Assembly (NCBI GenBank): GCA_008364785.1
Contig: VTTJ01000006.1
Coordinates: 327,387-351,386, forward strand
Length of the DNA: 24,000 nucleotides
Origin: Bacillus sp. BGMRC 2118
Lineage (GTDB): Bacteria; Bacillota; Bacilli; Bacillales; SA4
Reading direction: 5' to 3'
Under the pieces are notes generated by a model. That model was not told the origin of the DNA, did no database searches, and worked only from the letters and a program-made list of their open reading frames with translations. Made by a program: the position numbers and the translations under genes. This document shows positions 3,916-23,421 of the stretch, piece by piece. How positions within the stretch are numbered: position 1 is the stretch's first letter; every line of letters begins with the position of its first letter.

Positions 3916-4446
3916 ATGAGTAGTACATATTTAGAAGAATATGAGATTAGCCCTTACACAATGGCCATTCTTCCAGAGGTAACAGAGGAGGGATTATATT
4001 CTCGGGTTATGGAACTTGAATACGAGTACATTGTAAGAGCAAAGCCAATCCAAATTATTGAAAAGAGCTGCCGTTTCTTTGGAAGTAGCCTCCAAGGTAG
4101 AAAAGAAGGTACGCGCGAGATTATGGGTGTCACCCACAAAGCCCCTATTGTCATTGATCCTACAAATTCCATCTATTTTTTCCCTACAACCTCACCTACA
4201 AGACAACAATGTTCCTGGATTTCTCATTCATTTGTTAAACAATTAGTTAATAGTGATTATGACAAAACAACGATTATTTTTTCAAATAGTAAAGAAGTTA
4301 CATTTTCAATCTCAAGAGGTTCTTTAGAAAACCAGCTTTATCGCACTGCGCAGCTTCGTACAACACTATCGAGTCGTATATCTTCAGAAAACAGAAAGAC
4401 GTCCTTCTTAATGACTCCTCATTATAATGCTAAAGAAATGAGCTAA
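3916..4446 (+). CDS. comK: competence transcription factor ComK
   Basis: CRFFGSSLQGRKEGT, HKAPIVIDP, FFPTTSPTRQQCSWISH and ENQLYRTAQLRT match recalled B. subtilis ComK (CRFFGSSYAGRKAGT, HKPPIMVDP, LFPTLSSTRPQCGWISH, ENQVYRTAWLRT). RBS AAAGGAG. Confidence 0.93.
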   Translation: MSSTYLEEYEISPYTMAILPEVTEEGLYSRVMELEYEYIVRAKPIQIIEKSCRFFGSSLQGRKEGTREIMGVTHKAPIVIDPTNSIYFFPTTSPTRQQCSWISHSFVKQLVNSDYDKTTIIFSNSKEVTFSISRGSLENQLYRTAQLRTTLSSRISSENRKTSFLMTPHYNAKEMS

Positions 4447-8986: not shown

Positions 8987-11900
8987 ATGTCCTCCTCTTC
9001 TATTCTTCATACGAAATTAATTCCACCAAGTATAAAAGATGATATATTACGCAGACCCACCTTGACGAAGAAGCTGCATTCTATCACTACAGTACCGTTA
9101 ACGATTGTACACTCTGGTCCAGGCTATGGGAAAAGTACAGCTGTCTCCACCTTTTTATCTGATTTACGAAAAACGTACTGCTGGTATAGTATATCAAGCT
9201 ATGATGACGAGCTAATCCCCTTTTTGACCTACTTCATTTATGCGATTAAAGGACAGTTTTCAGGATTTGGTGATGAGTTAATCCACTACATAAATAAGAT
9301 GAACCGATATGGAAGAGATGAAGAAATTCGTAGCTTGAGTGCCTTATTAGTAAATGAAATTATGGAGCTTAACTCTGAATTCATAATGATTATAGACGAT
9401 TTGCATCTTGTCCAACATTCAAATCAAATTGACGAGTGGTTAGTATGGTTTATTGAAAATATTCCGCACAATCTAAGGATGGTATTTATCAGTAGAAATC
9501 GTCCTCAATGGGGGATTATGAGTTCGTTGAAGCTGAAAGGTCTTTTACTAGAAATAGGTGAGAAGGATCTGGCATTTTCTCAAGAAGACATTGAAGCATG
9601 GTTTACAGACGTTTATAGCATGGAGCTGGACGAAAAAGAAATACAGCAGATTTATCAGCTAACCGAAGGGTGGATTATTGCCCTGCAAATGATCATCCAA
9701 CAGTTAGGTCACCACCGTGATATCTCAAAGCTGTTAAAAAATAAATATACGTCTATGGAAGACCTGTTTCATTTCTTGGCAATGGAGGTTCTTGTTAAGC
9801 AAGCTCCGATGGTTCAGCAGTTTTTAGAGCAAACGTGTATTTTCGATGAAATAACACCGCAACTTTGTGATGAGGTATTAGGAATCTCAGGTTCTAGGGA
9901 TATGCTGGAATTATTGCAGCAAAAGAACTTATTTTTACAATCAATCGGTCAAAATCAGTATCGGTATCATGCACTTTTTAAAGAGTTTCTAGAACGACAG
10001 CTCGTTCTCCAACAAGATAAATATAAACAGTTACACAGGAGAGCCTCTGATTATTATCGCAGAAGAAGTCATGTAGAGCTGGCCATTTACCACTTAGAGA
10101 AATTAGAAAAACATGATGAAGTAGCCTACTTATTAAATGAATATGGAGAAACGTTAATTCAGAATGGAAAGCTTGAGAGTTTATTGGAACGCCTAAGAAA
10201 AGTGTCAGATGATCAGAAGCAGGTGTTTTATCGACTGTATTATTTACAAGGTGAAGTACTTCGTTATCAATGCCTGTACAAGGAGTCAGAAGAAAATTAT
10301 CAAAAAGCATCGATGCTCGCAAATAGAAGAGGTGATCATGAGGGAGAATTAAAAGCACTTCAAGGGCAGGCATACATATACTTAGACACAATTTCCCCAG
10401 GTAAGGCAGATCGCCTACTTCAACGAGCAATTGAAATTATGGAAAAAAATGAAAGCGCTTTAGAAATAGAAAAGGCCCGGCTTTATTGCCTAATGGCCGA
10501 AAACTTAGTAAATGCAGGGCAAGCAAAAAAAGCGGAAAAGTGGTTTGAGAAAGCAATAGAACATGATTTGTTGGAGGATATCGGAAATTTAGAAGCAAGG
10601 TTAAAACTGAGGACAGGACAATTAAGTGAAGCAAAACGAATATTATTTAATAAGAAAAACTTTGAGCTTCAGGAAACGCATTCACACTTGCAACAATCAC
10701 ATCGAGAAACGAATCTTCTATTGTCATTAATTGAATGCTTCGTTGGGAAGCCAGAATCGGCAAAGGAATTAGCTGAGATCGGGATTCAAGATGGTATTCG
10801 CTATAAAGCCCCTTTTGTAGAGGCGTGTGGTTGGATTCGTATGGGGCATGCTGTCCAACTAATCGGACGATATGATTCTAACTTAGCAAAAAAATGCTAT
10901 GATACAGCTCTTCATATGATGGATGATTTAGATGTGCCGCGTGGGAAGGCTGAGCCGTTAATGGGACTCTCGATTGTGTATGGCGCTGATGGGGCTTATG
11001 AAAAGGCAATGGAATTCGGAAAGCATGCCCTTGCTGAAACAGAAAGAGTGAATGATTCATGGCTTTCTGCATGTATTAAATTATGCATTGCTATAACATG
11101 CTCCTATGCCAGTAAAATAGACGAAACAGAAGATTGGCTACATAAGGCAAACGATCAATTCCACTTCTGCGGGGACCAATATGGCATTTGTATTACAATG
11201 CTCTGGAAGTCCATTCATTATTACCAACTTGAAAAATGGACACCATTTCAAGAAGCATTTACTAGCTTCTTAAATTATGTTCAAATTGGAAACTATGAAT
11301 ATATTCTTACTCAGCAGACAATCTTTGGCCCAAGAGACTTACAATCTATCACACCATTACTGATTGAAGCGCAGGCTCAAGGGATACAACGGCAATATGT
11401 AACCTATTTATTAAATGAGCTTGGACTTCATGATGTTGAAAGTCATCCTGGTTATACGCTTAGAGTCCAAACATTAGGGAGATTTAGAGTGTGGATTGGT
11501 GATAAAGAGGTACGTGAAAAGGATTGGCAACGAGGAAAGGCAAAGGAACTATTTGAGTTATTCATTACAAAGCGGCATCAGTATTTCCAAAAAGATACCC
11601 TTTACCAACTACTATGGGCAGATGTAGACGAAAAGGCTGCATCAAGAGATTTTAAAGTGGCGTTTAATGCACTTCATAATGCGATAGAACCTCAGCGTAA
11701 AGCAAGAACGAATCCATTCTTCTTTAAACGTGAAGGCCAGTCATATGGGGTAAATCCGAAAGCGAGTATGTATTTAGATGCGGAGGAGTTTGAACGCTGG
11801 ATCCGAGCTGGTTTAAAAGAGAAGGATAATGAAAAAGCCTTCAATTTCTTATCTAAAGGATTAGAACTATATGATGGAGACTACTTACCCGAACGTCGGT

Positions 11901-12214
11901 ATGAAGAGTGGTGCATAGCTGAGCGAGAACGGTTACTCGTCTATTACTTGAGAGGAGCAGAAAAGCTAGCGCAACTTTCAGTCCAAAAGTCGCAATACGA
12001 TGAAGCCATACACTGGTGTGAAAATATTTTAGAAAAAGATAATACGTGGGAAGAAGCGTATCGATTATTGATGTATTGCTTTTATCAAAAAAATAACAGA
12101 CCCCTGGCAATCAGGTGGTATAAAAAGTGCTGCAATAGCTTAGAAAATGAGCTAGGTGTAGCACCTATGGAACCGACAAAACAAATGTTTGAAATGATCA
12201 CGAAGATGGGGTAG
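8987..12214 (+). CDS. large transcriptional regulator: N-terminal MalT-like STAND/AAA ATPase, central TPR-like helical repeats, C-terminal SARP module (OmpR-type winged helix plus BTAD)
   Basis: MalT-like N-terminus (LHTKLIPPS...RRPTL), Walker A GPGYGKST (aa 44-51), Walker B IMIIDDLH and LTEGWIIALQM. The C-terminus has YTLRVQTLGRFRVWIGDKEV...WQRGKAKELFELF (wHTH) followed by GDYLPERRYEEWCIAERERL...AIRWYKKCCNSLENELGVAPMEPT (BTAD). Confidence 0.85.
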   Translation: MSSSSILHTKLIPPSIKDDILRRPTLTKKLHSITTVPLTIVHSGPGYGKSTAVSTFLSDLRKTYCWYSISSYDDELIPFLTYFIYAIKGQFSGFGDELIHYINKMNRYGRDEEIRSLSALLVNEIMELNSEFIMIIDDLHLVQHSNQIDEWLVWFIENIPHNLRMVFISRNRPQWGIMSSLKLKGLLLEIGEKDLAFSQEDIEAWFTDVYSMELDEKEIQQIYQLTEGWIIALQMIIQQLGHHRDISKLLKNKYTSMEDLFHFLAMEVLVKQAPMVQQFLEQTCIFDEITPQLCDEVLGISGSRDMLELLQQKNLFLQSIGQNQYRYHALFKEFLERQLVLQQDKYKQLHRRASDYYRRRSHVELAIYHLEKLEKHDEVAYLLNEYGETLIQNGKLESLLERLRKVSDDQKQVFYRLYYLQGEVLRYQCLYKESEENYQKASMLANRRGDHEGELKALQGQAYIYLDTISPGKADRLLQRAIEIMEKNESALEIEKARLYCLMAENLVNAGQAKKAEKWFEKAIEHDLLEDIGNLEARLKLRTGQLSEAKRILFNKKNFELQETHSHLQQSHRETNLLLSLIECFVGKPESAKELAEIGIQDGIRYKAPFVEACGWIRMGHAVQLIGRYDSNLAKKCYDTALHMMDDLDVPRGKAEPLMGLSIVYGADGAYEKAMEFGKHALAETERVNDSWLSACIKLCIAITCSYASKIDETEDWLHKANDQFHFCGDQYGICITMLWKSIHYYQLEKWTPFQEAFTSFLNYVQIGNYEYILTQQTIFGPRDLQSITPLLIEAQAQGIQRQYVTYLLNELGLHDVESHPGYTLRVQTLGRFRVWIGDKEVREKDWQRGKAKELFELFITKRHQYFQKDTLYQLLWADVDEKAASRDFKVAFNALHNAIEPQRKARTNPFFFKREGQSYGVNPKASMYLDAEEFERWIRAGLKEKDNEKAFNFLSKGLELYDGDYLPERRYEEWCIAERERLLVYYLRGAEKLAQLSVQKSQYDEAIHWCENILEKDNTWEEAYRLLMYCFYQKNNRPLAIRWYKKCCNSLENELGVAPMEPTKQMFEMITKMG

Positions 12215-12299: not shown

Positions 12300-12590
12300 T
12301 AGGACTCGCCAATGACTGAGTTGGATTCGCCAATTAGGAGTCGAGAATCGCTAATAAAAGAGTAGATTTCGCTAATGAGAAGTCAGAACTCGCTAATAAA
12401 AGAGTAGATTTCGCTAATGAGAAGTCAGAACTCGCCAATAAAAGGGTAGATGTCGCTAATAAGAAGTCAGAACTCGCCAATAAAAGGGTAGATTTCGCTA
12501 TTAAAATAGTAAAATTCGCCAGTAACTAGGCTAATTTCGATGATAGCAGTATCGGTTGGCTGATATATGACTAATTTCGCTAATCAAATA
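12300..12590 (+). repeat. phased tandem array: 21-bp unit (core TCGCTAAT/TCGCCAAT), 42-bp higher-order unit, about 14 copies
   Basis: Cores start at 12306, 12327, 12348, 12369, 12390, 12411, 12432, 12453, 12474, 12495, 12516 and 12537, each exactly 21 bp after the last. Degenerate copies follow near 12557 and 12577. 12348-12389 and 12390-12431 are identical 42-mers. Confidence 0.95.
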
Positions 12591-12658
12591 CTTTTAAGAA
12601 AAGCAATATCAAAGTAATTACTTCTAGTCTAACAGAAATTCATTAAGTAAAAGCTATA

Positions 12659-12705
12659 ACGCAGGTGCAGTCATGCTAGAGACAAGAGCACTTGCGTTTT
12701 TTTTT
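12659..12705 (+). terminator. intrinsic terminator downstream of the repeat array
   Basis: ACGCAGGTGC (12659-12668) pairs with GCACTTGCGT (12688-12697), with one G-U pair, followed by 9 T. Confidence 0.8.
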
Positions 12706-12740
12706 AAAGCAAAAGGAAGGACATCATAGTACTTATTTAT

Positions 12741-12781
12741 ATTTGTAACTCATTTGTAACCACTACCGATTACGATACAAT
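12741..12781 (+). promoter_or_regulatory. operon promoter with a direct-repeat operator (ATTTGTAAC x2, 11-bp spacing)
   Basis: ATTTGTAAC occurs at 12741-12749 and 12752-12760. -10 candidates are TACGAT (12771-12776) and TACAAT (12776-12781). The same 20-nt motif is found at 21855-21874. Confidence 0.6.
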
Positions 12782-12825
12782 CAACGTTTCCACGTTAGGA
12801 GATGTAACGAAAAGGGGGAAGTGAC

Positions 12826-14055
12826 ATGGGTAAGAAAAAATGGCATCGTAGTTTATCTTTATTAATGCTAGCATTTGTTCTTCTTTTATCAGCATGTTCC
12901 GGCACAACGACAACAGATGAGGGAAATGGAGATTCTGAGGAAAGCAAGAAACCAATAAAGGTTGGTGTTTTGGCATCTATGACAGGTCCTCTTGAAGCAT
13001 ATGGCAAACAATCCATTCAAGGATTTGAGCTGGGCTTGGATTATGCAACAGATGGAACGAGAGAGGTAAACGGTCAAAAAATTGAATTTATCGTAGAAGA
13101 TACGGAAACAAAGCCAGAGGTTGCAATTCAAAAAGCAACAAAGTTATTAGAGGAAGATGAAGTTGATTTCTTAGTTGGATCTTCAAGTTCAGGTGACACA
13201 TTGGCTGTACTACCGCTTGCTGAAGAGTATGAAAAAATCATGGTGGTTGAACCGGCTGTAGCTGATAGTATCACAGGTTCAGAGTTTAATAAGTATATTT
13301 TTAGAACTTCTCGTAACTCTTCACAAGATGCGGTAGCAGGAGCAGCTGCCATTGCAGATAAAGGGGTGAAAATTGCAACCTTTGCTCCAGATTCATCGTT
13401 CGGTCAAGACGGGATCGCTGCATTTAAAGAAGCCGCATTAGATCTTGGTGCGGAAATCGTACATGAAGAGTATGCAGATCCTGCTGCTACTGACTTCACT
13501 TCTAACATTCAAAAGATTATTGAAGCAAAACCTGATTACTTATTTGTTGTTTGGGCAGGGGCAAATTCTCCTTGGAACCAGATTTCAGATATGAAGGTAC
13601 AAGACAAAGGGATTAAAATCTCAACAGGTGCTCCTGACATTGCGGCACTATCTACCATGAATGCTTTAGTAGGGATGGAAGGGTTCACCGTATATTATCA
13701 TGACCTACCACAAAACGATATTAATAAATGGTTAGTAGAAGAGCATAAGAAGCGATTTGACGGAACAGTCCCAGATCTGTTTACTCCTGGTGGAATGAGT
13801 GCAGCCATTGCAATTGTAGAAGCAATCAAGGAAACAAAAGGAGATACAGATGCTGAAACGTTAATTGAAGCGATGGAAGGAATGAGCTTCGAAACGCCTA
13901 AAGGGAAGATGACTTTTAGACCCGAAGATCACCAGGCCCTTCAATCACTATATGCGATTCGTTTAGAAAAGAAAGACGGCGTTGACTATCCGGTTCCTGT
14001 ATTGATTCGTGAACTCACACCAGAAGAAACAGCACCACCAATTCGTAATAAGTAA
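12826..14055 (+). CDS. ABC transporter substrate-binding lipoprotein, LivK / branched-chain amino acid (type I PBP) family
   Basis: Lipobox LLLSAC, then KVGVLASMTGPLEAYGKQSIQGFELGLDYA, which is typical of Peripla_BP_6/LivK-type binding proteins. RBS AAGGGGGA. Confidence 0.88.
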   Translation: MGKKKWHRSLSLLMLAFVLLLSACSGTTTTDEGNGDSEESKKPIKVGVLASMTGPLEAYGKQSIQGFELGLDYATDGTREVNGQKIEFIVEDTETKPEVAIQKATKLLEEDEVDFLVGSSSSGDTLAVLPLAEEYEKIMVVEPAVADSITGSEFNKYIFRTSRNSSQDAVAGAAAIADKGVKIATFAPDSSFGQDGIAAFKEAALDLGAEIVHEEYADPAATDFTSNIQKIIEAKPDYLFVVWAGANSPWNQISDMKVQDKGIKISTGAPDIAALSTMNALVGMEGFTVYYHDLPQNDINKWLVEEHKKRFDGTVPDLFTPGGMSAAIAIVEAIKETKGDTDAETLIEAMEGMSFETPKGKMTFRPEDHQALQSLYAIRLEKKDGVDYPVPVLIRELTPEETAPPIRNK

Positions 14056-14066
14056 TGAGCCATTCA

Positions 14067-14100
14067 AAAAGGAACTTATGGTAAAACGTAAGTTCCTTTT
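14067..14100 (+). terminator. intra-operon hairpin after the binding-protein gene (partial terminator or mRNA stabiliser)
   Basis: AAAAGGAACTTA (14067-14078) pairs with TAAGTTCCTTTT (14089-14100), a perfect 12-bp stem. Only 4 U are present and they lie within the stem. Confidence 0.5.
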
Positions 14101-14177
14101 CGCTAATAAAACGTATTTAACATCTTTTGCCTGGTTCTCACGGAGAGGATCTAATTCTATATAAGTAGGTGAATCAT

Positions 14178-14939
14178 ATGAGTAACATTATTGAAACGAA
14201 GGATTTAACCATTTCATTTGGTGCGCATACCGCAGTAGACCAAGTGAACTTTTCAGTGCCGTCTCAACATTTTAAGTCTATTATTGGGCCAAACGGTGCA
14301 GGAAAAACAACGTTTTTCAATTTATTAAGTGGGCAACTGTCTCCAACAAAAGGTGAAGTTTTTCTTAAAGGGGAAAATATAACGAAGCTGTCACCTACGG
14401 AACGTACTCGGAAAGGAATTGGTCGTTCTTTTCAAATCACAAATGTATTTCCGAATTTAACAGTACTTGAAAATGTAAGACTTGCAGTGCAGTCGAAGCA
14501 CGGAGTTCGATATAACTTTTTATCTCATTTTCAGAGCTTCCGGGGACATGAAGAAGAATCACATGAGTTACTTCGAAAAGTACTACTTGATTCTAAAGCA
14601 CATTCACTCGCAAAAAACTTAGCTCATGGTGAAAAACGCAAACTGGAAATTGCGATGTTATTAGCATTAGAAACAGAAGTGATTCTCCTTGATGAACCAA
14701 CAGCTGGCATGTCAATTGAGGAAGTTCCAACCATTCTTGAAGTGATTAAACAAATAAAAGAGGAAGGATCGAGAACAATCATTCTAATCGAACACAAAAT
14801 GGATATGATTTTAGATTTATCTGATTCAGTTACTGTTTTATTTAATGGCACGTTGTTAGCAGACGGGACACCACAAGAGATTATGGATAATGAAACGGTA
14901 CAAAAAGCATATTTAGGGGGCTTATACGATGCTTCTTAG
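14178..14939 (+). CDS. ABC transporter ATP-binding protein, LivG-like
   Basis: Walker A GPNGAGKTT, signature-like HGEKRKLEIA and Walker B ILLDEPTAG. I prefer ATG 14178 (AGGTG 6 nt upstream) over GTG 14169. Confidence 0.9.
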   Translation: MSNIIETKDLTISFGAHTAVDQVNFSVPSQHFKSIIGPNGAGKTTFFNLLSGQLSPTKGEVFLKGENITKLSPTERTRKGIGRSFQITNVFPNLTVLENVRLAVQSKHGVRYNFLSHFQSFRGHEEESHELLRKVLLDSKAHSLAKNLAHGEKRKLEIAMLLALETEVILLDEPTAGMSIEEVPTILEVIKQIKEEGSRTIILIEHKMDMILDLSDSVTVLFNGTLLADGTPQEIMDNETVQKAYLGGLYDAS

Positions 14940-15630
14940 GGTAGAACATATCGAAACGTACATTGAACAGTATCATATTTTACAAGGAGTTTCCATCGTT
15001 GCCAACAAGGGTGAAGTAACTGTGCTACTTGGTAGAAATGGAGCAGGAAAAACAACAACACTTCGTTCCATTATGGGGCTTAATCCGGCAGCAAAAGGAA
15101 AGATTTTATATAAGGAAAAAGAGATACAAAACCTTCCAACCTATGAAATTGCAAAACTGGGAATTGGTTATGTACCAGAAAACCAAGGGATATTTGCCGA
15201 TCTCACAGTAGAAGAAAATATGAAGGTTGCCATTCGAAAGCAGGATGGTGAAACGATGAAACGACTTGATTGGATTTTAGAATTGTTTCCAGATTTAAAG
15301 AAGTTTTGGAAAAAGGCTGGCGGAACATTAAGCGGAGGTCAGAAGCAGATGCTCTCTATCTCCAGAGCGTTTATCGGAAATAATGAATTGTTGCTTATTG
15401 ACGAACCAAGCAAGGGACTTGCGCCAATCGTTGTAGAAAGCGTCATGAATGCGATTCAAGAATTAAAAAAGGAAGCGACAATCATATTAGTGGAACAAAA
15501 CTTCATGATGGCTAGCAACATTGGTGATTACTTTTACATCGTAGATGATGGACGGAGTGTACTTGATGGAAAGATGGAACTATTAAAGAAAGATGAAATA
15601 CTACGTAAAAAATACTTAGGGATTGCGTAA
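14929..15630 (+). CDS. ABC transporter ATP-binding protein, LivF-like
   Basis: Walker A GRNGAGKTT, signature LSGGQKQML and Walker B LLLIDEPSKGL. It overlaps the upstream gene by 11 nt. Confidence 0.9.
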   Translation: MLLRVEHIETYIEQYHILQGVSIVANKGEVTVLLGRNGAGKTTTLRSIMGLNPAAKGKILYKEKEIQNLPTYEIAKLGIGYVPENQGIFADLTVEENMKVAIRKQDGETMKRLDWILELFPDLKKFWKKAGGTLSGGQKQMLSISRAFIGNNELLLIDEPSKGLAPIVVESVMNAIQELKKEATIILVEQNFMMASNIGDYFYIVDDGRSVLDGKMELLKKDEILRKKYLGIA

Positions 15631-15646
15631 GAGAGGAGGAAGCCTT

Positions 15647-16510
15647 GTGGAAGTATTGGTTAATTTGCTTATAAACGGTTTAGCGACAGGGATGTTAATT
15701 TTCTTACTGGCAGCAGGATTAACACTTATATTCGGATTAATGGACGTCCTGAATTTTGCTCATGGTGGATTGTTTGCTTGGGGAGCGTATGCGGGAGTAT
15801 GGTCTTATGGAGTAACAGACAGCTTCTTAGTCGGTATTATATGTGCAATCGCAGTCGGACTTGTTTTAGGCTTGTTAATGGAAAAGTTTATAATCGGGCC
15901 AGTATATGGAAATCATGTACAACAAATCTTAATCACTCTCGGCGTCATGCTTGTTTTAGGGGAAATGTTGAAGGTAGTTTGGGGACCGAACCAGTTAAGC
16001 GCGAAAACACCTGAGTGGTTAACGGGAAGCTGGGAATGGGGAGACATTATCCTTATTAAATACCGTTTATTTATAATCATTGTAGGATTTTTAGTTTTCC
16101 TTGCCGTACATCTTCTCCTTACAAAAACAAAGCTAGGATTAGTTGTGAGAGCAGGAGTTATGGATAAAGAGATGGTGCAAGCGTTAGGAATTAACATTAA
16201 GCGAGTATTTATGTATGTGTTTATGATTGGTTCTGCAATGGCCGCACTTGGTGGAGTATTACTCGGACCCTATTCTGGTGTCATCTATGCAGAAATGGGG
16301 ATGGAATTTGCAATTCTGGCCTTCATCGTTGTTGTAATAGGTGGAATGGGAAGTATTACGGGTTCAGTTATGGCAGCGATTTTAGTTGGAGTAACTGGTT
16401 CTCTAATGGCGTATTTCGTTCCCGAGTTATCACTTGCAGTTAACATGATGTTAATGATGATTGTATTAATTTTTAGACCTCAAGGGTTATTTCAATTGAA
16501 AAAGGGGTGA
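15647..16510 (+). CDS. branched-chain amino acid-type ABC permease, LivH-like
   Basis: Polytopic membrane protein beginning (M)EVLVNLLINGLATGMLIFLLAAGLTLIFG, which is typical of LivH. GTG 15647 has AGGAGGA 6 nt upstream. Confidence 0.85.
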   Translation: MEVLVNLLINGLATGMLIFLLAAGLTLIFGLMDVLNFAHGGLFAWGAYAGVWSYGVTDSFLVGIICAIAVGLVLGLLMEKFIIGPVYGNHVQQILITLGVMLVLGEMLKVVWGPNQLSAKTPEWLTGSWEWGDIILIKYRLFIIIVGFLVFLAVHLLLTKTKLGLVVRAGVMDKEMVQALGINIKRVFMYVFMIGSAMAALGGVLLGPYSGVIYAEMGMEFAILAFIVVVIGGMGSITGSVMAAILVGVTGSLMAYFVPELSLAVNMMLMMIVLIFRPQGLFQLKKG

Positions 16511-17535
16511 GGGTATTGGATAGATTTCGGAAAAGTTATCAAAAACCATTGTTCTATTACATCATCATCGGGATACTGTTAGTCCTTTTTCCTTTTATCA
16601 ATGATGAACGGGCAATGCTTATATTATTTACTCAGATCTTTATATTTGCGGTTTTAGCGATGAGCTATGATTTATTACTTGGATACACTGGTATCGTATC
16701 ATTTGGCCATGCGATGTTCTTTGGTATCGGTGCCTATTCAACAGGTATCTTTCTAGACCGTATGGATGGGTCGATTCTAGCTTTAGTAATAGGATTACTT
16801 GTTGGGGCGGTACTTTCGGCAGTCGTTAGCTTCGTTGTAGGAATTCTCTCCTTACGGTTGAAGAGCCACTTTTATGCAATGCTGACAATGGCATTTGCCG
16901 GATTGTTTTTAGTACTAGCGCAGAAATGGCGTTCTGTCACACATGGAAATGATGGCTTTACATTTAGTATTCCTGATGCATTTAAAGAAAGGGAAGTGCT
17001 ATATTTCACATCTCTATTCCTTATGATTCTAGTATTTTTTGGATTAAGACGTTTTACATCCTCACCGGTAGGAAAGGTGCTGCAGGCAATAAGAGAAAAT
17101 GAATCGAGAACAGAATCTCTAGGTTTTCATATTCTTCACTACAAAGTAATTGCTAGTGTAATAGCGGGTGTAATAGCGAGTTTTGCCGGATCTTTTTATG
17201 TACTCACTCTTCGTTTCGTCAATACTTCTGTTTTCACGATGGATATTACATTGGACGCATTATTAATGACGATTATTGGAGGAGTTGGAACGCTTGCAGG
17301 TGCGATTTTAGGTGCTGGGATTATTGAATTTGCTCATCACTGGTTAACAGGTCTGGCGAAGGTACATTGGATTTTCGAGAGATGGATTATTTTATTCGGA
17401 ATCGTTTATATTCTGTCTGTTATGTTCTTTCCAAAAGGAATTGTTGGAACAAGTAAGCATTGGTTTGAAAAACGTAAATATGCCAGGGTCAATGAAGGGC
17501 AATTAACAGACAAAAATGCGGATGTCATGAGGTAG
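16507..17535 (+). CDS. branched-chain amino acid-type ABC permease, LivM-like
   Basis: Polytopic protein containing LLLGYTGIVSFGHAMFFGIGAY, which is typical of LivM. The start is GTG 16507, or TTG 16516 which has better RBS spacing. Confidence 0.85.
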   Translation: MRVLDRFRKSYQKPLFYYIIIGILLVLFPFINDERAMLILFTQIFIFAVLAMSYDLLLGYTGIVSFGHAMFFGIGAYSTGIFLDRMDGSILALVIGLLVGAVLSAVVSFVVGILSLRLKSHFYAMLTMAFAGLFLVLAQKWRSVTHGNDGFTFSIPDAFKEREVLYFTSLFLMILVFFGLRRFTSSPVGKVLQAIRENESRTESLGFHILHYKVIASVIAGVIASFAGSFYVLTLRFVNTSVFTMDITLDALLMTIIGGVGTLAGAILGAGIIEFAHHWLTGLAKVHWIFERWIILFGIVYILSVMFFPKGIVGTSKHWFEKRKYARVNEGQLTDKNADVMR

Positions 17536-17547
17536 GAGGAAGTTAAA

Positions 17548-17733
17548 ATGATGGAAGATACCCTTCAACACATTACTTCCTTCGTGATCAGGTGTACGTG
17601 CATTGATGTACAAGAATTGACTGGAGAAAAGGTGTGGAGAATTAAAGTAAAGCATGTACAAGGAGAAGAAGAAATCTCTGTACAGAGCCTTGACGATATG
17701 ATGGTTTACTTGAAAAGAGTACTTGGGGAGTGA
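17548..17733 (+). CDS. hypothetical 61-aa protein, translationally coupled on both sides
   Basis: AGGAGGA lies 7 nt before the ATG. The stop overlaps the start of the FabH-like gene. No family recognised. Confidence 0.55.
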   Translation: MMEDTLQHITSFVIRCTCIDVQELTGEKVWRIKVKHVQGEEEISVQSLDDMMVYLKRVLGE

Positions 17734-18764
17734 ATGAGTTGGTTTCAATTGGGATTAGGAGTACGGGCATCTATTTACCAAAATCTGTGATGACTAGCGA
17801 AGAACTAGCAGGAATATCAGGTATACCTAAAGAAATAGTAGAAAATAAGCTTGGTATTAAACAAAAACCAATACCTGGACCAGATGATCATACATGTCAT
17901 ATGGGGGTACTTGCCGCAAAGGAAGCAATAGATAATGCAGGCATAGATCCGCTTGATATTGATCTAGTTATTTATATTGGAGAAGAACATAAAGAGTATC
18001 CTCTTTGGACAGCAGGGATAAAACTCCAACAAGAAGTAGGAGCACTTAACGCATGGGCTTATGATGTAGCACTTAGGTGTGGAACGACTGTTATGGCGCT
18101 AAAAGTGGCGAAAGACATGATGAAAGCCGATGATTCAATACGTACAGTGTTGTTGGCAGGAGGTTACCGGAATGTTGACTTCATAGACTATAAGAATGCT
18201 AGAACAAGATTTATGTATAACTTGTCTGCAGGTGGTGGAGCAATTATTTTAGAAAAAGCGTATGGAGAGAACGAATTACTAGAAAGTCATATAATGACAG
18301 ACGGTTCGTTCTCTGAGGATGTAGTTGTAGTGGCAGGTGGGACGAAGGAACCAATTACACCAGAAGCCATAAGGCTCAATCGAAATATGCTGGATGTACT
18401 TGATCCTCAGGGAATGAAACAACGCTTAGAGGAAAAGTCGATGGTCAACTTCTTAACCGTGATTCGTAAATCGTTGGAGAAAAGTGGGTATTCTGAGCAA
18501 GACATTGACTTCATCGGGATCTTACATATGAAGAAGTCAGCACATGATTATGTATTAAAAGAACTTGGATTACGTGAGGAACAATCCATCTATTTGGAGG
18601 ACTATGGACATATCGGTCAAATTGATCAAATATTATCTCTGCAATTAGCTGAGCAAGAAGGTAAGTTGAAAAGTGGGGATATTGTTGTACTTGTAAGCGC
18701 AGGTATAGGATATGCCTGGGGAGCAACGACCATCAGGTGGGGTGAATGTTTAGTAGATTCATAA
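17730..18764 (+). CDS. FabH-like (KAS III / thiolase-superfamily) condensing enzyme
   Basis: Aligns by eye along its full length to recalled E. coli FabH: DVALRCGTT vs DVAAACAGF (Cys), LSAGGGAIIL vs FGDGAGAAVL, ILHMKK vs VPHQAN (His), and DYGHIGQID vs RHGNTSAAS (Asn replaced by His). The start may be TTG 17739. Confidence 0.8.
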   Translation: MNELVSIGIRSTGIYLPKSVMTSEELAGISGIPKEIVENKLGIKQKPIPGPDDHTCHMGVLAAKEAIDNAGIDPLDIDLVIYIGEEHKEYPLWTAGIKLQQEVGALNAWAYDVALRCGTTVMALKVAKDMMKADDSIRTVLLAGGYRNVDFIDYKNARTRFMYNLSAGGGAIILEKAYGENELLESHIMTDGSFSEDVVVVAGGTKEPITPEAIRLNRNMLDVLDPQGMKQRLEEKSMVNFLTVIRKSLEKSGYSEQDIDFIGILHMKKSAHDYVLKELGLREEQSIYLEDYGHIGQIDQILSLQLAEQEGKLKSGDIVVLVSAGIGYAWGATTIRWGECLVDS

Positions 18765-18853
18765 CTACCATATTGAGTGTATAAAGAAACAAACTGCAAT
18801 GAAAGTCATTTTTTTCTGAAACCGTTTACAGGAAAAAAGGAGGAATATTGTCG

Positions 18854-19768
18854 ATGAGTATCCAATTAAATAAAGTAGAATTATCGAATGGTGAAACATT
18901 AGGTTACCGGTTACGTGAAGGACAGGGCAAGACATTACTTTTAGTACATGGAAATATGACATCCTCTAAACATTGGGATTTACTAATTGAAGCCTTACCA
19001 AAGGACTATCATATTATTGCAGTTGATCTTCGTGGATTTGGTGAATCGACTTATCACAAGCCGATTACGAGTATTAAAGAATTTACAGATGATGTAAAGC
19101 TTTTTGTCGATGCTCTTGGATTAAAGGATTTTGCCATGATGGGCTGGTCAACTGGTGGGGGAGTCGTCATGCAATTTCAGGTAGATTATCCTGGCTATGC
19201 AACCGAACTAATTCTATTAGCTTCTGTTTCTACGAGAGGTTACCCATTTTATGGTGTGAACGAACAAGGACAAATTGATCTCACCAAACGCTATCGATCA
19301 CTAGAAGAAATTAAGCAGGACCCAGTTCGGACCATTCCTATTCAAGGAGCTTATAACTCGGGGAACCGGGAATTATTACGTATGATTTGGAATGCAACAA
19401 TATATGACCAAAACCAGCCAACACCGGAAAAGTATGAAGAATACATCGATGATATGCTTACGCAGCGTAATTTAGCAGAAGTGTATCATGCATTAAATAC
19501 ATTTAATATAAGTAAACATCATAACGGTGTGACAGAAGGAACGAATCTAGTGACGAAAATCACCATTCCAACCTTAGTGTTAAACGGGGAACGTGACAAA
19601 GTTGTTCTTAAGATAATGACTGATGAAATTGCAGCAGATTTAAACGAATCAATAGTGACGGTTGTTGAACTAAAAGGCTGTGGTCATTCAGCATTAATAG
19701 ATGATGTAACCCAATTAGTAGATGTTGTAACCGCATTTCTTGGAAAGAAAGTAGGGGAAACACAGTGA
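18854..19768 (+). CDS. alpha/beta fold hydrolase
   Basis: Oxyanion region LLLVHGNMTSS, nucleophile elbow GWSTGG and C-terminal His in GCGHSALID. ATG 18854 lies 10 nt after AAGGAGG; TTG 18848 is an alternative. Confidence 0.85.
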   Translation: MSIQLNKVELSNGETLGYRLREGQGKTLLLVHGNMTSSKHWDLLIEALPKDYHIIAVDLRGFGESTYHKPITSIKEFTDDVKLFVDALGLKDFAMMGWSTGGGVVMQFQVDYPGYATELILLASVSTRGYPFYGVNEQGQIDLTKRYRSLEEIKQDPVRTIPIQGAYNSGNRELLRMIWNATIYDQNQPTPEKYEEYIDDMLTQRNLAEVYHALNTFNISKHHNGVTEGTNLVTKITIPTLVLNGERDKVVLKIMTDEIAADLNESIVTVVELKGCGHSALIDDVTQLVDVVTAFLGKKVGETQ

Positions 19769-20505
19769 GATTAGAAAATAGAGTTGCCGTTGTTACAGGA
19801 GCCGCAAATGGAATTGGATTAGAGGCTGCAAAACTTTTTGCTCTAGAAGGGGCAAAAGTAGTGTTAGCTGATTATAACGAAGAACAAGGGGCAAAGCATG
19901 CGGAAGAACTTCGTGCCACGGGAGCTGACGTATTATTTGTTCAAGTTAACGTTGCAGATCGTGAAAGCGTTGATAACATGGTGGCTAAAACGATTAATAC
20001 GTATGGCCAAATCGACATATTAATTAACAATGCGGGCATAACGAGGGATGCAATGCTGACGAAAATGACACCTGAAAACTTTAGTCAGGTAATTGATGTT
20101 AACTTGACAGGGGTTTTTCATTGTACACAAGCGGTTGTGCCGTACATGATACAAGCCGGTAAAGGAAAGATTGTTGTCACCTCTTCTGTTTCTGGTGTGT
20201 ATGGAAATGTTGGTCAAACCAATTATGCTGCTGCTAAAGCAGGAGTAATTGGAATGGTGAAATCATGGGCAAAGGAATTAGGACGTAAAGGAATAAATGT
20301 AAATGCTGTTGCACCTGGATTTACAAATACAGCTATGGTTCAAACTGTCCCGGAAAAAGTCATTCAGCAGCTCGTTGCTACGATACCACTGCAACGACTA
20401 GGACAACCAGAAGATATTGCAAAAGCATATTTATACTTAGCTTCAGACGATTCAGACTATGTAACAGGAACAGTATTGCATGTAGATGGTGGAATCATGA
20501 TGTAA
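19765..20505 (+). CDS. SDR family oxidoreductase, FabG-like 3-oxoacyl reductase
   Basis: Cofactor motif TGAANGIG, plus NNAG, catalytic YAAAKAG and GINVNAVAPGF. The GTG start overlaps the upstream stop. Confidence 0.9.
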   Translation: MRLENRVAVVTGAANGIGLEAAKLFALEGAKVVLADYNEEQGAKHAEELRATGADVLFVQVNVADRESVDNMVAKTINTYGQIDILINNAGITRDAMLTKMTPENFSQVIDVNLTGVFHCTQAVVPYMIQAGKGKIVVTSSVSGVYGNVGQTNYAAAKAGVIGMVKSWAKELGRKGINVNAVAPGFTNTAMVQTVPEKVIQQLVATIPLQRLGQPEDIAKAYLYLASDDSDYVTGTVLHVDGGIMM

Positions 20506-20539
20506 GATTACTGTCTACCAATCAAGGAGGAACAAAATT

Positions 20540-21715
20540 ATGAGAAATGTAGTCATTACTTCAGCAGTACGTTCACCAATTGGTGATTTTGGTGGTGTCT
20601 TCAAAGACTTGCTGCCAACTGATTTAATTGTGCCAGTTTTAAAGGAGGCAGTATCAAGAAGTAACCTCGGAAACGATGAGATAAATGAGGTTATTTTAGG
20701 TCATTGTATTCAAAGAACGGACCAGCCAAACACAGCTAGAACGGCTGCATTACTTGCCGGTTTATCCGATGAAACTACAGGTTATACCATCCAGCGTCAA
20801 TGTGCTTCGGGTATGCAAGCAGTTATATCGGCTGCATTGCAAATTCAATCTGGGTTATCAGATGTAGTGGTGGCTGGTGGCGTTGAGGCTATGAGTTCAA
20901 GTCCATATTTATTAAAACAGCATCGCTGGGGAGCTAGAATGCAGCACAGCCAAGTAACAGATACAGTTTGGGAGATCTTAGAGGATCCTATCCATCATAT
21001 TATGATGGGAGAGACAGCTGAAAATTTAGCGGATATCCACAACATTACACGTGAAGAGCAGGATGAAATCGCCCTGCTTAGTCACCAACGAGCCGCAAAG
21101 GCAATCGAACAAGGTTACTTTGATTCTCAAATTGTACCCATTACGTTAAAGTTCCGAAAAGGGGAAACAGTCGTAACAAAGGATGAGCATCCACGTCCAA
21201 CTTTAACAAAAGAAGATTTGGCAAAATTAAAAACTGTTTTCCGCAAGGACGGTACCGTAACTGCAGGTAATGCTTCCGGCTTAAATGATGGAGCAGCTGC
21301 ATTAGTCTTAATGGATGAAGAAACCGCATTACAAAAGGGGATTAAGCCTCTAGCTAGAATTGTAGGCTTCCAAGTTTCAGGAGTCGATCCAAAGGTAATG
21401 GGAAGAGGACCAGTTCCTAGTATTCAGCGAGGATTAGAGAGAGTAGGCTGGTCGTTAGAAGATGCCGACTTAATTGAAGTGAACGAGGCATTCGCAGCAC
21501 AATACTTGGCTGTTGAAAAGGAACTTGGATTAAATCGTGATATTGTAAATGTTAATGGCAGTGGGATCAGCTTAGGACACCCCATTGGTTGTACAGGCGC
21601 AAGAATTATAACAAGTCTTGTCCATGAGCTTCACCGTAGAGAAGTAAATAAAGGTATTGCCTCATTATGTGTTGGTGGAGGAATGGGAGCAGCTGTATTT
21701 ATTGAGAGAGTATAA
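20540..21715 (+). CDS. thiolase (acetyl-CoA C-acetyltransferase family)
   Basis: Nucleophile region QRQCASGMQAV, plus NEAFAAQ, GHPIGCTGARI and SLCVGGGMGAA. RBS AAGGAGG. Confidence 0.92.
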   Translation: MRNVVITSAVRSPIGDFGGVFKDLLPTDLIVPVLKEAVSRSNLGNDEINEVILGHCIQRTDQPNTARTAALLAGLSDETTGYTIQRQCASGMQAVISAALQIQSGLSDVVVAGGVEAMSSSPYLLKQHRWGARMQHSQVTDTVWEILEDPIHHIMMGETAENLADIHNITREEQDEIALLSHQRAAKAIEQGYFDSQIVPITLKFRKGETVVTKDEHPRPTLTKEDLAKLKTVFRKDGTVTAGNASGLNDGAAALVLMDEETALQKGIKPLARIVGFQVSGVDPKVMGRGPVPSIQRGLERVGWSLEDADLIEVNEAFAAQYLAVEKELGLNRDIVNVNGSGISLGHPIGCTGARIITSLVHELHRREVNKGIASLCVGGGMGAAVFIERV

Positions 21716-21724
21716 GGTTAGTAG

Positions 21725-21750
21725 AAGGGGTCCTTAACGGGTCCCTTTTT
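21725..21750 (+). terminator. intrinsic terminator ending the transporter/acyl-processing operon
   Basis: AAGGGGTCC (21725-21733) pairs with GGGTCCCTT (21739-21747), including two G-U pairs, followed by a T-run. Confidence 0.6.
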
Positions 21751-21854
21751 GTTGTATTCATGGATAAATGATACATATAAAGTAAATGTTGATACAAATA
21801 TTTAAAATGTGGTGCATATGTGAAAGAAATTGATGCATACACAAATCCCTATTC

Positions 21855-21890
21855 AATTGTAACTCATTTGCAACTACAGTTCCTTATAGT
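21855..21890 (+). promoter_or_regulatory. second copy of the direct-repeat operator plus a -10-like hexamer
   Basis: AATTGTAAC (21855-21863) and ATTTGCAAC (21866-21874) are spaced 11 bp apart. TATAGT (21885-21890) lies 10 nt downstream, the same geometry as at 12741-12776. Confidence 0.6.
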
Positions 21891-21927: not shown

Positions 21928-23421
21928 GTGAGATGGGATTTGGATTGGGTTGAGAAGCGTTCACAGCTAACGCCAGATAAGGTTGCCATCATTGATGGAG
22001 AAAATAATAACCAGTATACCTACAAAGAATTAGCCAATCGTGCCCATTCGTTTGCTACCTATTTGAAAAGTAAAGGTGTAACTAAAGGGGATCGTGTTGC
22101 TCTTCTTTGCCCTAACGACATATGCTATTTTGATTTTCTATTTGCATGTATGAAGATTGGTGCCATTTTTGTTCCGATTAATTGGCGATTATCACAGGTT
22201 GAAATACAAGCTATTCACGAAGACTGTACACCAAGTCTAATTGGCTATCACTCCCGTTTTGCAAACTTACTTCCGCCTGCAGACAAAATAATTCAGGTGG
22301 ATTGTGAACACTATGAATCTATTTTTAACAATAACTATACCGCTCTGATGGACTCAACCTTAACTGAGAATGATCCACTTACAATTATTTATACCGGAGG
22401 GACCACTGGGAAATCAAAAGGAGTGGTGCTCACACATTCGAACATAGGCTGGAATGCTATAAATACAATAGTGAGCTGGAGCCTGACAGAGTCTGATATT
22501 ACATTAACATACTTGCCTCTATTTCATACAGGAGGTTTAAATGCTTTAACGCTTCCGATTTTACTTATGGGTGGAACCGTGTTAATTGCAAGGGATTTTA
22601 ATCCAGAATATACGATAGATTTAATAGAAAAAGAGAAATGCACCATTTTACTAATGGTACCAACGATGTATCATTTGATCACTTTATCGAAATCCTTTCA
22701 GCATGCTAAATTTGAGAGTATGCGAACATTCTTATCCGGTGGTGCACCCTGTCCGTTAACCATCTACGAAGCGTTTATGGAAAAAGGAATTGATTTTAAA
22801 GAGGGGTATGGACTCACGGAAGCAGGACCTAATAATTTTTACATTGATCCCAAGTTATCAATGAAGAAAAAAGGTTCAATTGGCATGCCAATGATGTTTA
22901 ATAAGGCAAAAATCATGAAACACGATGGAACTCTTGCGAAAGTCAATGAAGTTGGAGAACTTTTGTTATTCGGGAATCATGTGTTTGATCATTATTGGAA
23001 TAATCCGGAAGCCACAAGGAAAGCAATCAAAAACGGCTGGCTACACACGGGCGACTTGGCAAGATATGATGAAGACGGTTATTACTATATTGTTGGACGT
23101 AAAAAGGAAATGATTATTACTGGTGGAGAAAACGTCTATCCACTAGAAGTCGAACAATGTATACAAAATCATGCTTCTGTCGCTGAAGTAGCAGTAGTCG
23201 GTTTGCCACATGAGAAATGGGGAGAAGTAGTTACTGCATTTGTATCGCTATATCCTGGACATACCGCAACAGAACAAGAGTTGAAGAATATTTGTCTACA
23301 GGAACTGGGCAGCTACAAGGTACCAAAATACTTTTGGATTATTGAAGAGCTGCCGAAAACGCACGTCGGAAAAATTGATAAGAAACAATTACAAACACAA
23401 TATGAATGTTTCATTAGTTAA
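21928..23421 (+). CDS. acyl-CoA synthetase (AMP-forming, ANL superfamily)
   Basis: AMP-binding motifs YTGGTTGKSKG, GYGLTEAG, TGDLARYDEDGYYYIVGRKKEMIITGGENVYP and GKIDKKQL. I choose GTG 21928 (AAGGAGAG 9 nt upstream), because the ORF-track start at 21820 would make the operator/promoter coding. Confidence 0.88.
   Translation: MRWDLDWVEKRSQLTPDKVAIIDGENNNQYTYKELANRAHSFATYLKSKGVTKGDRVALLCPNDICYFDFLFACMKIGAIFVPINWRLSQVEIQAIHEDCTPSLIGYHSRFANLLPPADKIIQVDCEHYESIFNNNYTALMDSTLTENDPLTIIYTGGTTGKSKGVVLTHSNIGWNAINTIVSWSLTESDITLTYLPLFHTGGLNALTLPILLMGGTVLIARDFNPEYTIDLIEKEKCTILLMVPTMYHLITLSKSFQHAKFESMRTFLSGGAPCPLTIYEAFMEKGIDFKEGYGLTEAGPNNFYIDPKLSMKKKGSIGMPMMFNKAKIMKHDGTLAKVNEVGELLLFGNHVFDHYWNNPEATRKAIKNGWLHTGDLARYDEDGYYYIVGRKKEMIITGGENVYPLEVEQCIQNHASVAEVAVVGLPHEKWGEVVTAFVSLYPGHTATEQELKNICLQELGSYKVPKYFWIIEELPKTHVGKIDKKQLQTQYECFIS

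Follow-up and report, generated by a model that had tools for sequence, protein, structure and literature searches.

The afs box, at which AfsR acts, spans 22 bp from -40 to -19 and consists of two 11-bp direct repeats; conservation and protein contacts are confined to the first 8 bp of each repeat and do not extend to the final 3. The promoter has its -10 element at -12 to -7, and region 4 of sigma sits on the SARP dimer, not in the groove of the -35 region (PMC10936776). The characterised SARP domains all activate transcription from this register (PMC10936776, PMC10972967), and in a 2024 review SARPs were described as exclusive to actinobacteria and as carrying the SARP domain N-terminally (PMC10972967). 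For the OmpR-family regulator WalR/VicR, a consensus of TGTWAH-N5-TGTWAH was reported (PMC4168254), and WalRK is a system characterised in Firmicutes (PMC9210968).

The locus analysed here lies in a window (that is, the whole 24,000-nucleotide stretch of DNA) from Bacillus sp. BGMRC 2118 and shares features with each of these systems. (i) Like AfsR and the other SARPs, its regulator is predicted to combine a winged helix with a BTA helical bundle (TM 0.77 to AfsR), and as in the 'large' SARPs this module is joined to a STAND NTPase and a TPR sensor. The putative operators are direct repeats, as are the SARP boxes (the afs box and the heptamer repeats of ActII-ORF4, DnrI and PimR), with the 11-bp period and the conserved first 8 bp of the afs box; they stop 6 bp short of the -10 element, and the -35 element, as at SARP promoters, is either poor or missing. 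The differences from SARPs are that the domain is C-terminal, following a MalT-like NOD (aa 815-1075 of 1075), and not N-terminal; that the hosts are Bacillaceae, with a sister group in Chloroflexi, and not actinobacteria; that the repeat is TGTAACY and not TCGAG-like; and that the predicted targets are an importer and a catabolic or PHA-related operon instead of an antibiotic cluster. (ii) With MalT of E. coli and GutR of B. subtilis, the regulator shares an N-terminal part of 520 residues that aligns with the MalT model, including Walker motifs, a MalT-type winged helix and a helical-repeat sensor, and a MalT-type logic would be expected, in which inducer and ATP together turn on a regulon for catabolism or uptake. 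However, the output of MalT is a LuxR-type HTH, whereas the regulator here carries a SARP module, and its match to the MalT model reaches 255 bits versus a cut-off of 537. (iii) The pho box of PhoB and the WalR/VicR box are likewise hexamer or heptamer direct repeats that start with TGT at 11-bp phasing, and in the pho box, too, the repeats stand in for the -35 element, some 10 bp ahead of the -10 element. Unlike OmpR-family response regulators, the regulator here has no receiver domain, is not phosphorylation-controlled and carries a BTA bundle plus a STAND ATPase; moreover, the consensus of the WalR box is looser than that of the Bacillus box.

The regulator and its putative target genes

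The regulator gene is followed by an operon and by an acyl-CoA ligase gene, whose promoters are designated P1 and P2, respectively. The features of the locus are as follows.

8987-12214, + strand: regulator gene (1075 aa), with an N-terminal MalT-like STAND NTPase, a winged-helix/TPR sensor region and a C-terminal SARP domain
11429-12214, + strand: SARP domain (aa 815-1075), with an OmpR-type winged helix and a BTA helical bundle
12658-12706, + strand: stem-loop and U-run (-18.8 kcal/mol, z -2.6), a probable terminator insulating P1 from the regulator gene
12743-12764, + strand: P1 operator box, 22 bp, two 11-bp direct repeats (12743-12753 and 12754-12764), from the window sequence and the comparison
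12744-12749 and 12755-12760, + strand: TGTAAC cores of P1, invariant in 76/76 orthologous promoters
12771-12776, + strand: -10 hexamer of P1, TACGAT, starting 10 nt past the second TGTAAC
12782-12783, + strand: predicted transcription start of P1, cA (A at 12783), 7 nt past the -10 hexamer, at the conserved c40/A41
12826-21715, + strand: putative target operon (from ORFs, Pfam and NCBIfam)
21723-21749, + strand: intrinsic terminator after the thiolase gene and upstream of P2 (11-bp stem with 5 GC pairs, T-run)
21857-21878, + strand: P2 operator box, with cores TGTAAC (21858-21863) and TGCAAC (21869-21874)
21885-21890, + strand: -10 hexamer of P2, TATAGT, starting 10 nt past the second half-site
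21928-23421, + strand: acyl-CoA ligase gene, FadD-like, GTG start at 21928 with AAAGGAGAG ahead of it

The regulator is 100% identical to a protein of Bacillus sp. BGMRC 2118. In its sequence, Pfam matches to NPHP3_N/AAA_16, TPR_12 and BTAD were found, the last of these at residues 930-1071 (E 3e-19), and a MalT-type winged-helix domain (PF25873) is present in the precomputed annotation. Residues 7-522 matched the NCBIfam model of MalT (E 1e-75) at 255 bits, under the cut-off of 537, and both the Walker A residues (G46, G48, K49 and T51) and the Walker B residues (D137 and D138) were invariant in a 25-member family alignment. When its C terminus was compared as a single sequence with the sequences in PDB, designed TPR proteins were the only matches, apart from a marginal one to AfsR (E 0.21); the family profile and the predicted fold were needed to see the SARP domain. 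With a 17-member profile of the last 261 residues, the SARP domain of AfsR (8hvr_I) was matched over its full length (~250 residues, E 7e-5), and the same profile gave a weak match to the DNA-binding domain of PhoB. The AlphaFold2 model of the C terminus (mean pLDDT 91.7) had as its best Foldseek matches AfsR in the transcription initiation complexes 8K60/8HVR (TM 0.74-0.77, E 4e-12) and EmbR (2FEZ), at a sequence identity to AfsR of ~19-20%. The presumed recognition helix of the domain is RDFKVAFNALHNAIEP, and residues F75, K76, V77, A78, E87, P88, R90 and R93 (FKVA...EP.R..R) are invariant across the Bacillaceae and Chloroflexi members. Thus, profile, predicted fold, MalT alignment and Walker motifs together identify the regulator, at the level of sequence and model, as a MalT-like STAND switch with a SARP module as its predicted C-terminal output domain. 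The databases already tag these Bacillus proteins as members of the BTAD or SARP family. Among the ORFs of the window and their Pfam matches, the regulator is the only gene product near the operon in which a DNA-binding regulator domain was recognised.

The operon encodes a LivJ-type binding protein with two ABC ATPases and two permeases, and further a FabH-like enzyme, an alpha/beta hydrolase, an SDR and a thiolase. The hydrolase scored 440 bits against the NCBIfam equivalog NF050089 (cut-off 300), which represents intracellular scl-PHA depolymerase; the SDR fell among the FabG/acetoacetyl-CoA-reductase models and the thiolase among BktB-like models of NCBIfam. A role of the operon in PHA metabolism is suggested by this one equivalog-level match plus the gene context. 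An Ole-type (olefin/beta-lactone) reading of the FabH-like enzyme, the hydrolase, the SDR and the AMP-ligase was dropped because of these NCBIfam assignments of hydrolase (PHA depolymerase equivalog), SDR (FabG-like) and thiolase (BktB-like). For the ligase gene, the GTG at 21928 was taken as the true start, since the listed ORF start at 21820 would place P2 inside the gene.

Elsewhere in the window, a tandem array at 12304-12525, between the stop codon of the regulator and the terminator ahead of P1, consists of 4.7 copies of a 42-bp unit with a 21-bp sub-period (ACTCGCCAATAAAAGAGTAGATTTCGCTAATGAGAAGTCAGA). The TCGCYAAT word of the array is missing from the corresponding intergenic region of L004, a 93%-identical relative, and of six further ones, and the array looks like a strain-specific expansion. 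A 176-aa ORF at 3916-4446 (MSSTYLEEYEISPYTMAIL...CRFFGSS...) has a product that we take to resemble the competence regulator ComK of B. subtilis.

Two putative operator boxes and their conservation in Bacillaceae

TTGTAACTCATTTGTAAC at 12743-12760 and TTGTAACTCATTTGCAAC at 21857-21874 are the sole two matches in the window: the 18-mer TTGTAACTCATTTGYAAC, searched with up to 3 mismatches on both strands, occurred at 2 places in the 24 kb, versus 0.05 expected, and 2 matches were reached in none of 100 shuffles. At P1, ATTTGTAAC is present twice (12741-12749 and 12752-12760) with TC between the copies; downstream, the hexamer TACGAT (12771-12776) overlaps a second one, TACAAT (12776-12781). At P2, AATTGTAACTCATTTGCAAC (21855-21874) is followed after 10 nt by TATAGT (21885-21890).

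Via a 25-member alignment of the regulator family, 80 loci were collected from distinct Bacillaceae genomes, with regulators 48-93% identical, and the comparison overall took in about 90 other genomes. Across the 80 loci, the box reads TGTAACY-N4-TGTAACY-N9-TAnnAT, with variable spacer and flanks. It is located upstream of 76 of the 76 orthologues of the binding-protein gene and of 31 of the 32 orthologues of the acyl-CoA ligase gene, always on the coding strand, at 57-75 nt from the start of the former and 35-54 nt from that of the latter; these distances hold also in 14 loci where 3-6 kb of unrelated genes lie between regulator and operon. A scan of the 80 loci with TTGTAAC-N4-TTGTAAC at 0, 1 and 2 mismatches found 34, 46 and 41 matches, respectively, on the strand of the regulator, yet only 0, 0 and 7 on the opposite strand. 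The co-occurrence of box and regulator is one-directional in this set of 80, as the loci were chosen through homology of the regulator.

Circularity in the motif was avoided by locating both genes through homology alone and counting the 6-mers in the 170 nt upstream of each. TGTAAC was the most widely shared one (76/76 and 32/32), above the ribosome-binding site, and the full pattern TGTAAC-N5-TGYAAC-N10-TAnnnT was found in 76/76 upstream regions of the binding-protein gene and in 31/32 of those of the ligase gene. The logo of the 107 orthologous sites (76 plus 31), in which position 1 corresponds to 12743 of the window, has the following features.

Positions 2-7 and 13-18: TGTAAC, invariant apart from a rare C in the second half-site (2/76 and 1/31)
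Position 8: T in 88-97% of sites
Position 19: always a pyrimidine
Positions 9-11 and 20-28: variable
Positions 29, 30 and 34: T, A and T, invariant
Position 33: A in ~85% (76 sites)
Positions 40-41: cA, conserved in both promoter classes

The logo reads ACTnnn, not a -35 element, 16-18 bp ahead of the -10 hexamer; moreover, in the consensus of the 107 sites neither a -35 element at any allowed spacing nor an extended -10 TG was found. The conservation of TAnnAT at a fixed distance from the repeats indicates that the -10 element of P1 is TACGAT and not the better-looking TACAAT. A12783 is probably the start of the P1 transcript, judging from the conservation of cA in both promoter classes. In P2, the second half-site is TGCAAC (21869-21874); its C is found at few sites of the family (2/76 and 1/31), and binding of the regulator may therefore be weaker at this strain's ligase promoter than at P1.

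Measured on the box itself, the conserved positions are (1)2-8 and (12)13-19, the gap to the -10 hexamer is 6 bp and a conserved A follows 7 nt past that hexamer. With the start site predicted in this way, the 22-bp box is positioned from about -40 to -19, the register of the afs box of AfsR, which supports the view that it would work like a SARP box. The SARP-like geometry put forward in the original prediction therefore agrees with the conserved sites, as do several of its other elements: the two sites are instances of one shared operator, conserved at 76/76 binding-protein and 31/32 ligase promoters; repeats, TC spacer and the 10 nt to the hexamer are all as it described them; the proposed location at the -35 position, in place of a -35 consensus, was borne out by the invariant distance to the TAnnAT hexamer; and the SARP-type domain that it assigned to the adjacent regulator was recovered by profile and predicted fold. 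Its repeat unit, ATTTGTAAC, needs trimming: the direct repeats are real, but the unit conserved in the 107 sites is TGTAACY, and conservation of the ATT prefix is limited to close relatives.

Additional elements were seen around the box. Directly past the predicted start of P1 lies an inverted repeat (AACGTTTCCACGTT, 12784-12797), which reads CAAAGCTTGTGGGCTTTG in Mesobacillus loci and is also noted for related loci such as L020, L023, L026 and L029, and a CAAAGC-like word is conserved at positions 40-45 in most loci. A conserved leader hairpin at 12784-12797 was rejected, as the mean folding energy of 76 leaders was -3.7 kcal/mol versus -3.8 kcal/mol after shuffling; the element is clade-specific. 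In a few loci, the box precedes other members of the gene set, namely the SDR (L052, 21554), the FabH-like enzyme (L199, 5379) and an alpha/beta hydrolase (L082, 3768). The regulon seems to have been rewired by moving the box, not the genes.

Occurrence beyond Bacillaceae and candidate binding proteins

A metagenome scan with TGTAACT-N4-TGTAACT-N9-TAnnAT returned at least 120 loci. Among the metagenome matches listed, at least about twenty represent this system, with regulators that are more distant (34-52% identity). In at least 4 loci, stand-alone proteins of ~260 aa that are 38-41% identical to the C terminus of the regulator end 7-75 nt before the box. Such small SARPs form a family of more than 1100 members, in which those with a name belong to Anaerolineae/Chloroflexi. 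Four Chloroflexi loci (L201-L204) were picked by protein identity only, and each of the four (50-65% GC) carries on its coding strand TGTAAC-N5-TGTAAC without a mismatch and, 10 nt further on, TAnnAT. The box thus travels with the SARP domain into an unrelated phylum. One of these loci (L202, 4845-4872) has three phased repeats before its -10 element (TGTATC, TGTAAC and TGTAAC, in 11-bp steps), as at some Streptomyces SARP sites, and in another (L203, 722-8834) the small SARP is directly preceded by a gene for a 1075-aa MalT-WHD/TPR/BTAD protein. The Chloroflexi neighbours include PhaC (L203), a faint PhaE (L202), SDR and CBS proteins and sub-threshold phasin-like proteins.

The same box was also found in operons of two other types. 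In metagenome contigs of ~28% GC, it lies 60-80 nt upstream of a pstB-phoU-like operon that also encodes an OmpR-family response regulator (L139, 5494; L190, 9117), a type that also occurs in L095, L155, L156, L184 and L195 among the matches listed; with its genes named by eye, the box at these operons would be Pho-box-like, with the same core as the Bacillus box. In contigs of 24-27% GC (L104, 1038; L182, 5315), the box and a perfect TATAAT precede genes for an ABC ATPase and a ~850-aa permease of the FtsX type, together with genes for an OmpR-type response regulator and a histidine kinase. Among the matches listed, this Bce-like type is also represented by L085, L133, L141, L144, L148, L168 and L193; in such a Bce-like detoxification module, the cognate regulator of the box is presumably the response regulator of the module. 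As box and -10 geometry are the same at these response-regulator operons, the DNA pattern alone does not identify the protein, and several winged-helix regulators appear to converge on the sequence. Judged by these sequence occurrences, the box is a recurrent solution for tandem dimers of winged-helix proteins and not the signature of one protein.

The main rival to the SARP-type regulator as the protein that binds the box is accordingly an OmpR-family response regulator encoded elsewhere, with the essential WalR as the obvious candidate in Bacillota, and with the SARP neighbour using another site or competing for this one; we consider it unlikely. TGTAAC-N5-TGTAAC fits the WalR consensus perfectly, with the exception of the P2 half-site TGCAAC, which breaks the W position, and the operons in L104, L182, L139 and L190 show the same box and spacing in front of their own OmpR-type response regulators. 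However, that consensus is degenerate, whereas the sixth base of the repeat is fixed here as C and the seventh as T/C. WalR regulons concern cell-wall turnover, whereas the operon here is for acid uptake and PHA depolymerase. Furthermore, the box lies beside SARP-domain genes in Chloroflexi, a phylum in which, to our knowledge, WalRK has not been described. There is also no response-regulator gene among the ORFs and Pfam matches of the window, and wherever the box does not vary, the residues of the recognition helix in the SARP domain are invariant as well. Genomic association likewise favours the SARP-domain protein over WalR.

Were the SARP-type regulator itself to bind the box as a repressor, it would block the -35/spacer region until removed by the inducer. 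Such a role is compatible with the overlap between the box and the core promoter (about -40 to -19), where many proteins repress, and with a TTGTAA-N16-TACAAT promoter at P1 (9/12 sigma-70-like) that overlaps the box. This promoter, offered as an alternative in the original prediction, was rejected: TTGTAA/TACAAT is unconserved and has no counterpart at P2, where it is impossible because the spacer would be 11 bp. From the same register, the characterised SARP domains all activate (PMC10936776, PMC10972967), and the combined logic of a MalT-like and an AfsR-like NOD is that inducer plus ATP leads to activation. A consensus with neither a -35 element nor an extended -10 TG is typical of activator-dependent promoters and makes repression decidedly unlikely.

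The weakest candidate reads TGTAAC as the -35 element of an ECF sigma promoter (sigma-X/sigma-W type) with an incidental duplication and has next to no probability: Bacillus ECF promoters do have -35 elements such as TGTAAC or TGAAAC, which the repeat resembles, but they need a CGAC/CGTA-type -10 element 16-17 nt downstream, and the conserved geometry contradicts this, with nothing conserved 16-17 nt past either repeat (positions 24-28 and 35-39), a sigma-A-type TAnnAT as the conserved hexamer 10 nt past the second repeat, and both repeats invariant with strict 11-bp phasing in 107 sites.

A predicted SARP-type switch and its implications

The preferred reading, to which we assign a probability of roughly 0.8, is that P1 and P2 are activator-dependent sigma-A promoters, at which the paired TGTAACY repeats are the predicted operator of the adjacent STAND-SARP regulator and a pair of SARP domains replaces recognition of a -35 element. 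The box, its conservation and geometry, the predicted fold and the co-occurrence were observed; that the regulator binds the box, activates instead of repressing, contacts sigma and answers to an inducer is inferred. In this mechanism, an inducer (probably a 3-hydroxyacid or a PHA-related metabolite) together with ATP would lift the autoinhibition of the regulator. Two SARP domains would then sit head-to-tail, one on each 11-bp repeat, and the pair would cover the region from about -40 to -19 at promoters where a usable -10 element (TAnnAT) is not accompanied by a -35 element. The SARP dimer would present a docking surface for region 4 of sigma-A and RNA polymerase in place of -35 recognition, a step equivalent to the 'sigma adaptation' shown for AfsR. 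As a result, P1 would be switched on for the operon of ABC importer, FabH-like enzyme, PHA depolymerase, SDR and thiolase, and P2 for the acyl-CoA ligase gene. In the literature, no description was found of this operator or regulon, of a SARP/BTAD regulator in Bacillus, of a link between SARPs and PHA, or of a TGTAAC direct-repeat operator of this kind.

A broader reading, which we put forward tentatively and to which we give somewhat less than even odds, is that a hitherto uncharacterised SARP subfamily outside Actinobacteria, STAND-fused in Bacillaceae and free-standing in Chloroflexi, uses the TGTAACY box and AfsR-type sigma adaptation to control the mobilisation and re-use of storage polyester, and would thereby be the missing switch of PHA turnover in these organisms. 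The PHA gene set on which this reading draws comprises depolymerase, thiolase, reductase, CoA ligase and a dedicated importer, plus the phasin-like proteins and PhaC in Chloroflexi.

For the annotation of regulatory sites, the system would caution that matches to the WalR consensus need not be WalR sites. If the proposed mechanism is true, the system would offer an operator that is well defined and easy to mutate (TGTAACY-N4-TGTAACY, 10 nt before TAnnAT) with a two-promoter regulon, which would make the inducer of the STAND sensor experimentally tractable, and it would provide a compact pair of inducible promoter and activator for the engineering of Bacillus. Moreover, the SARP module would be seen to work as the C-terminal output of a MalT-type STAND switch, and the SARP mode of activation, with direct repeats replacing the -35 element, would reach beyond the antibiotic clusters of actinobacteria into the primary carbon-storage metabolism of Bacillota and Chloroflexota.
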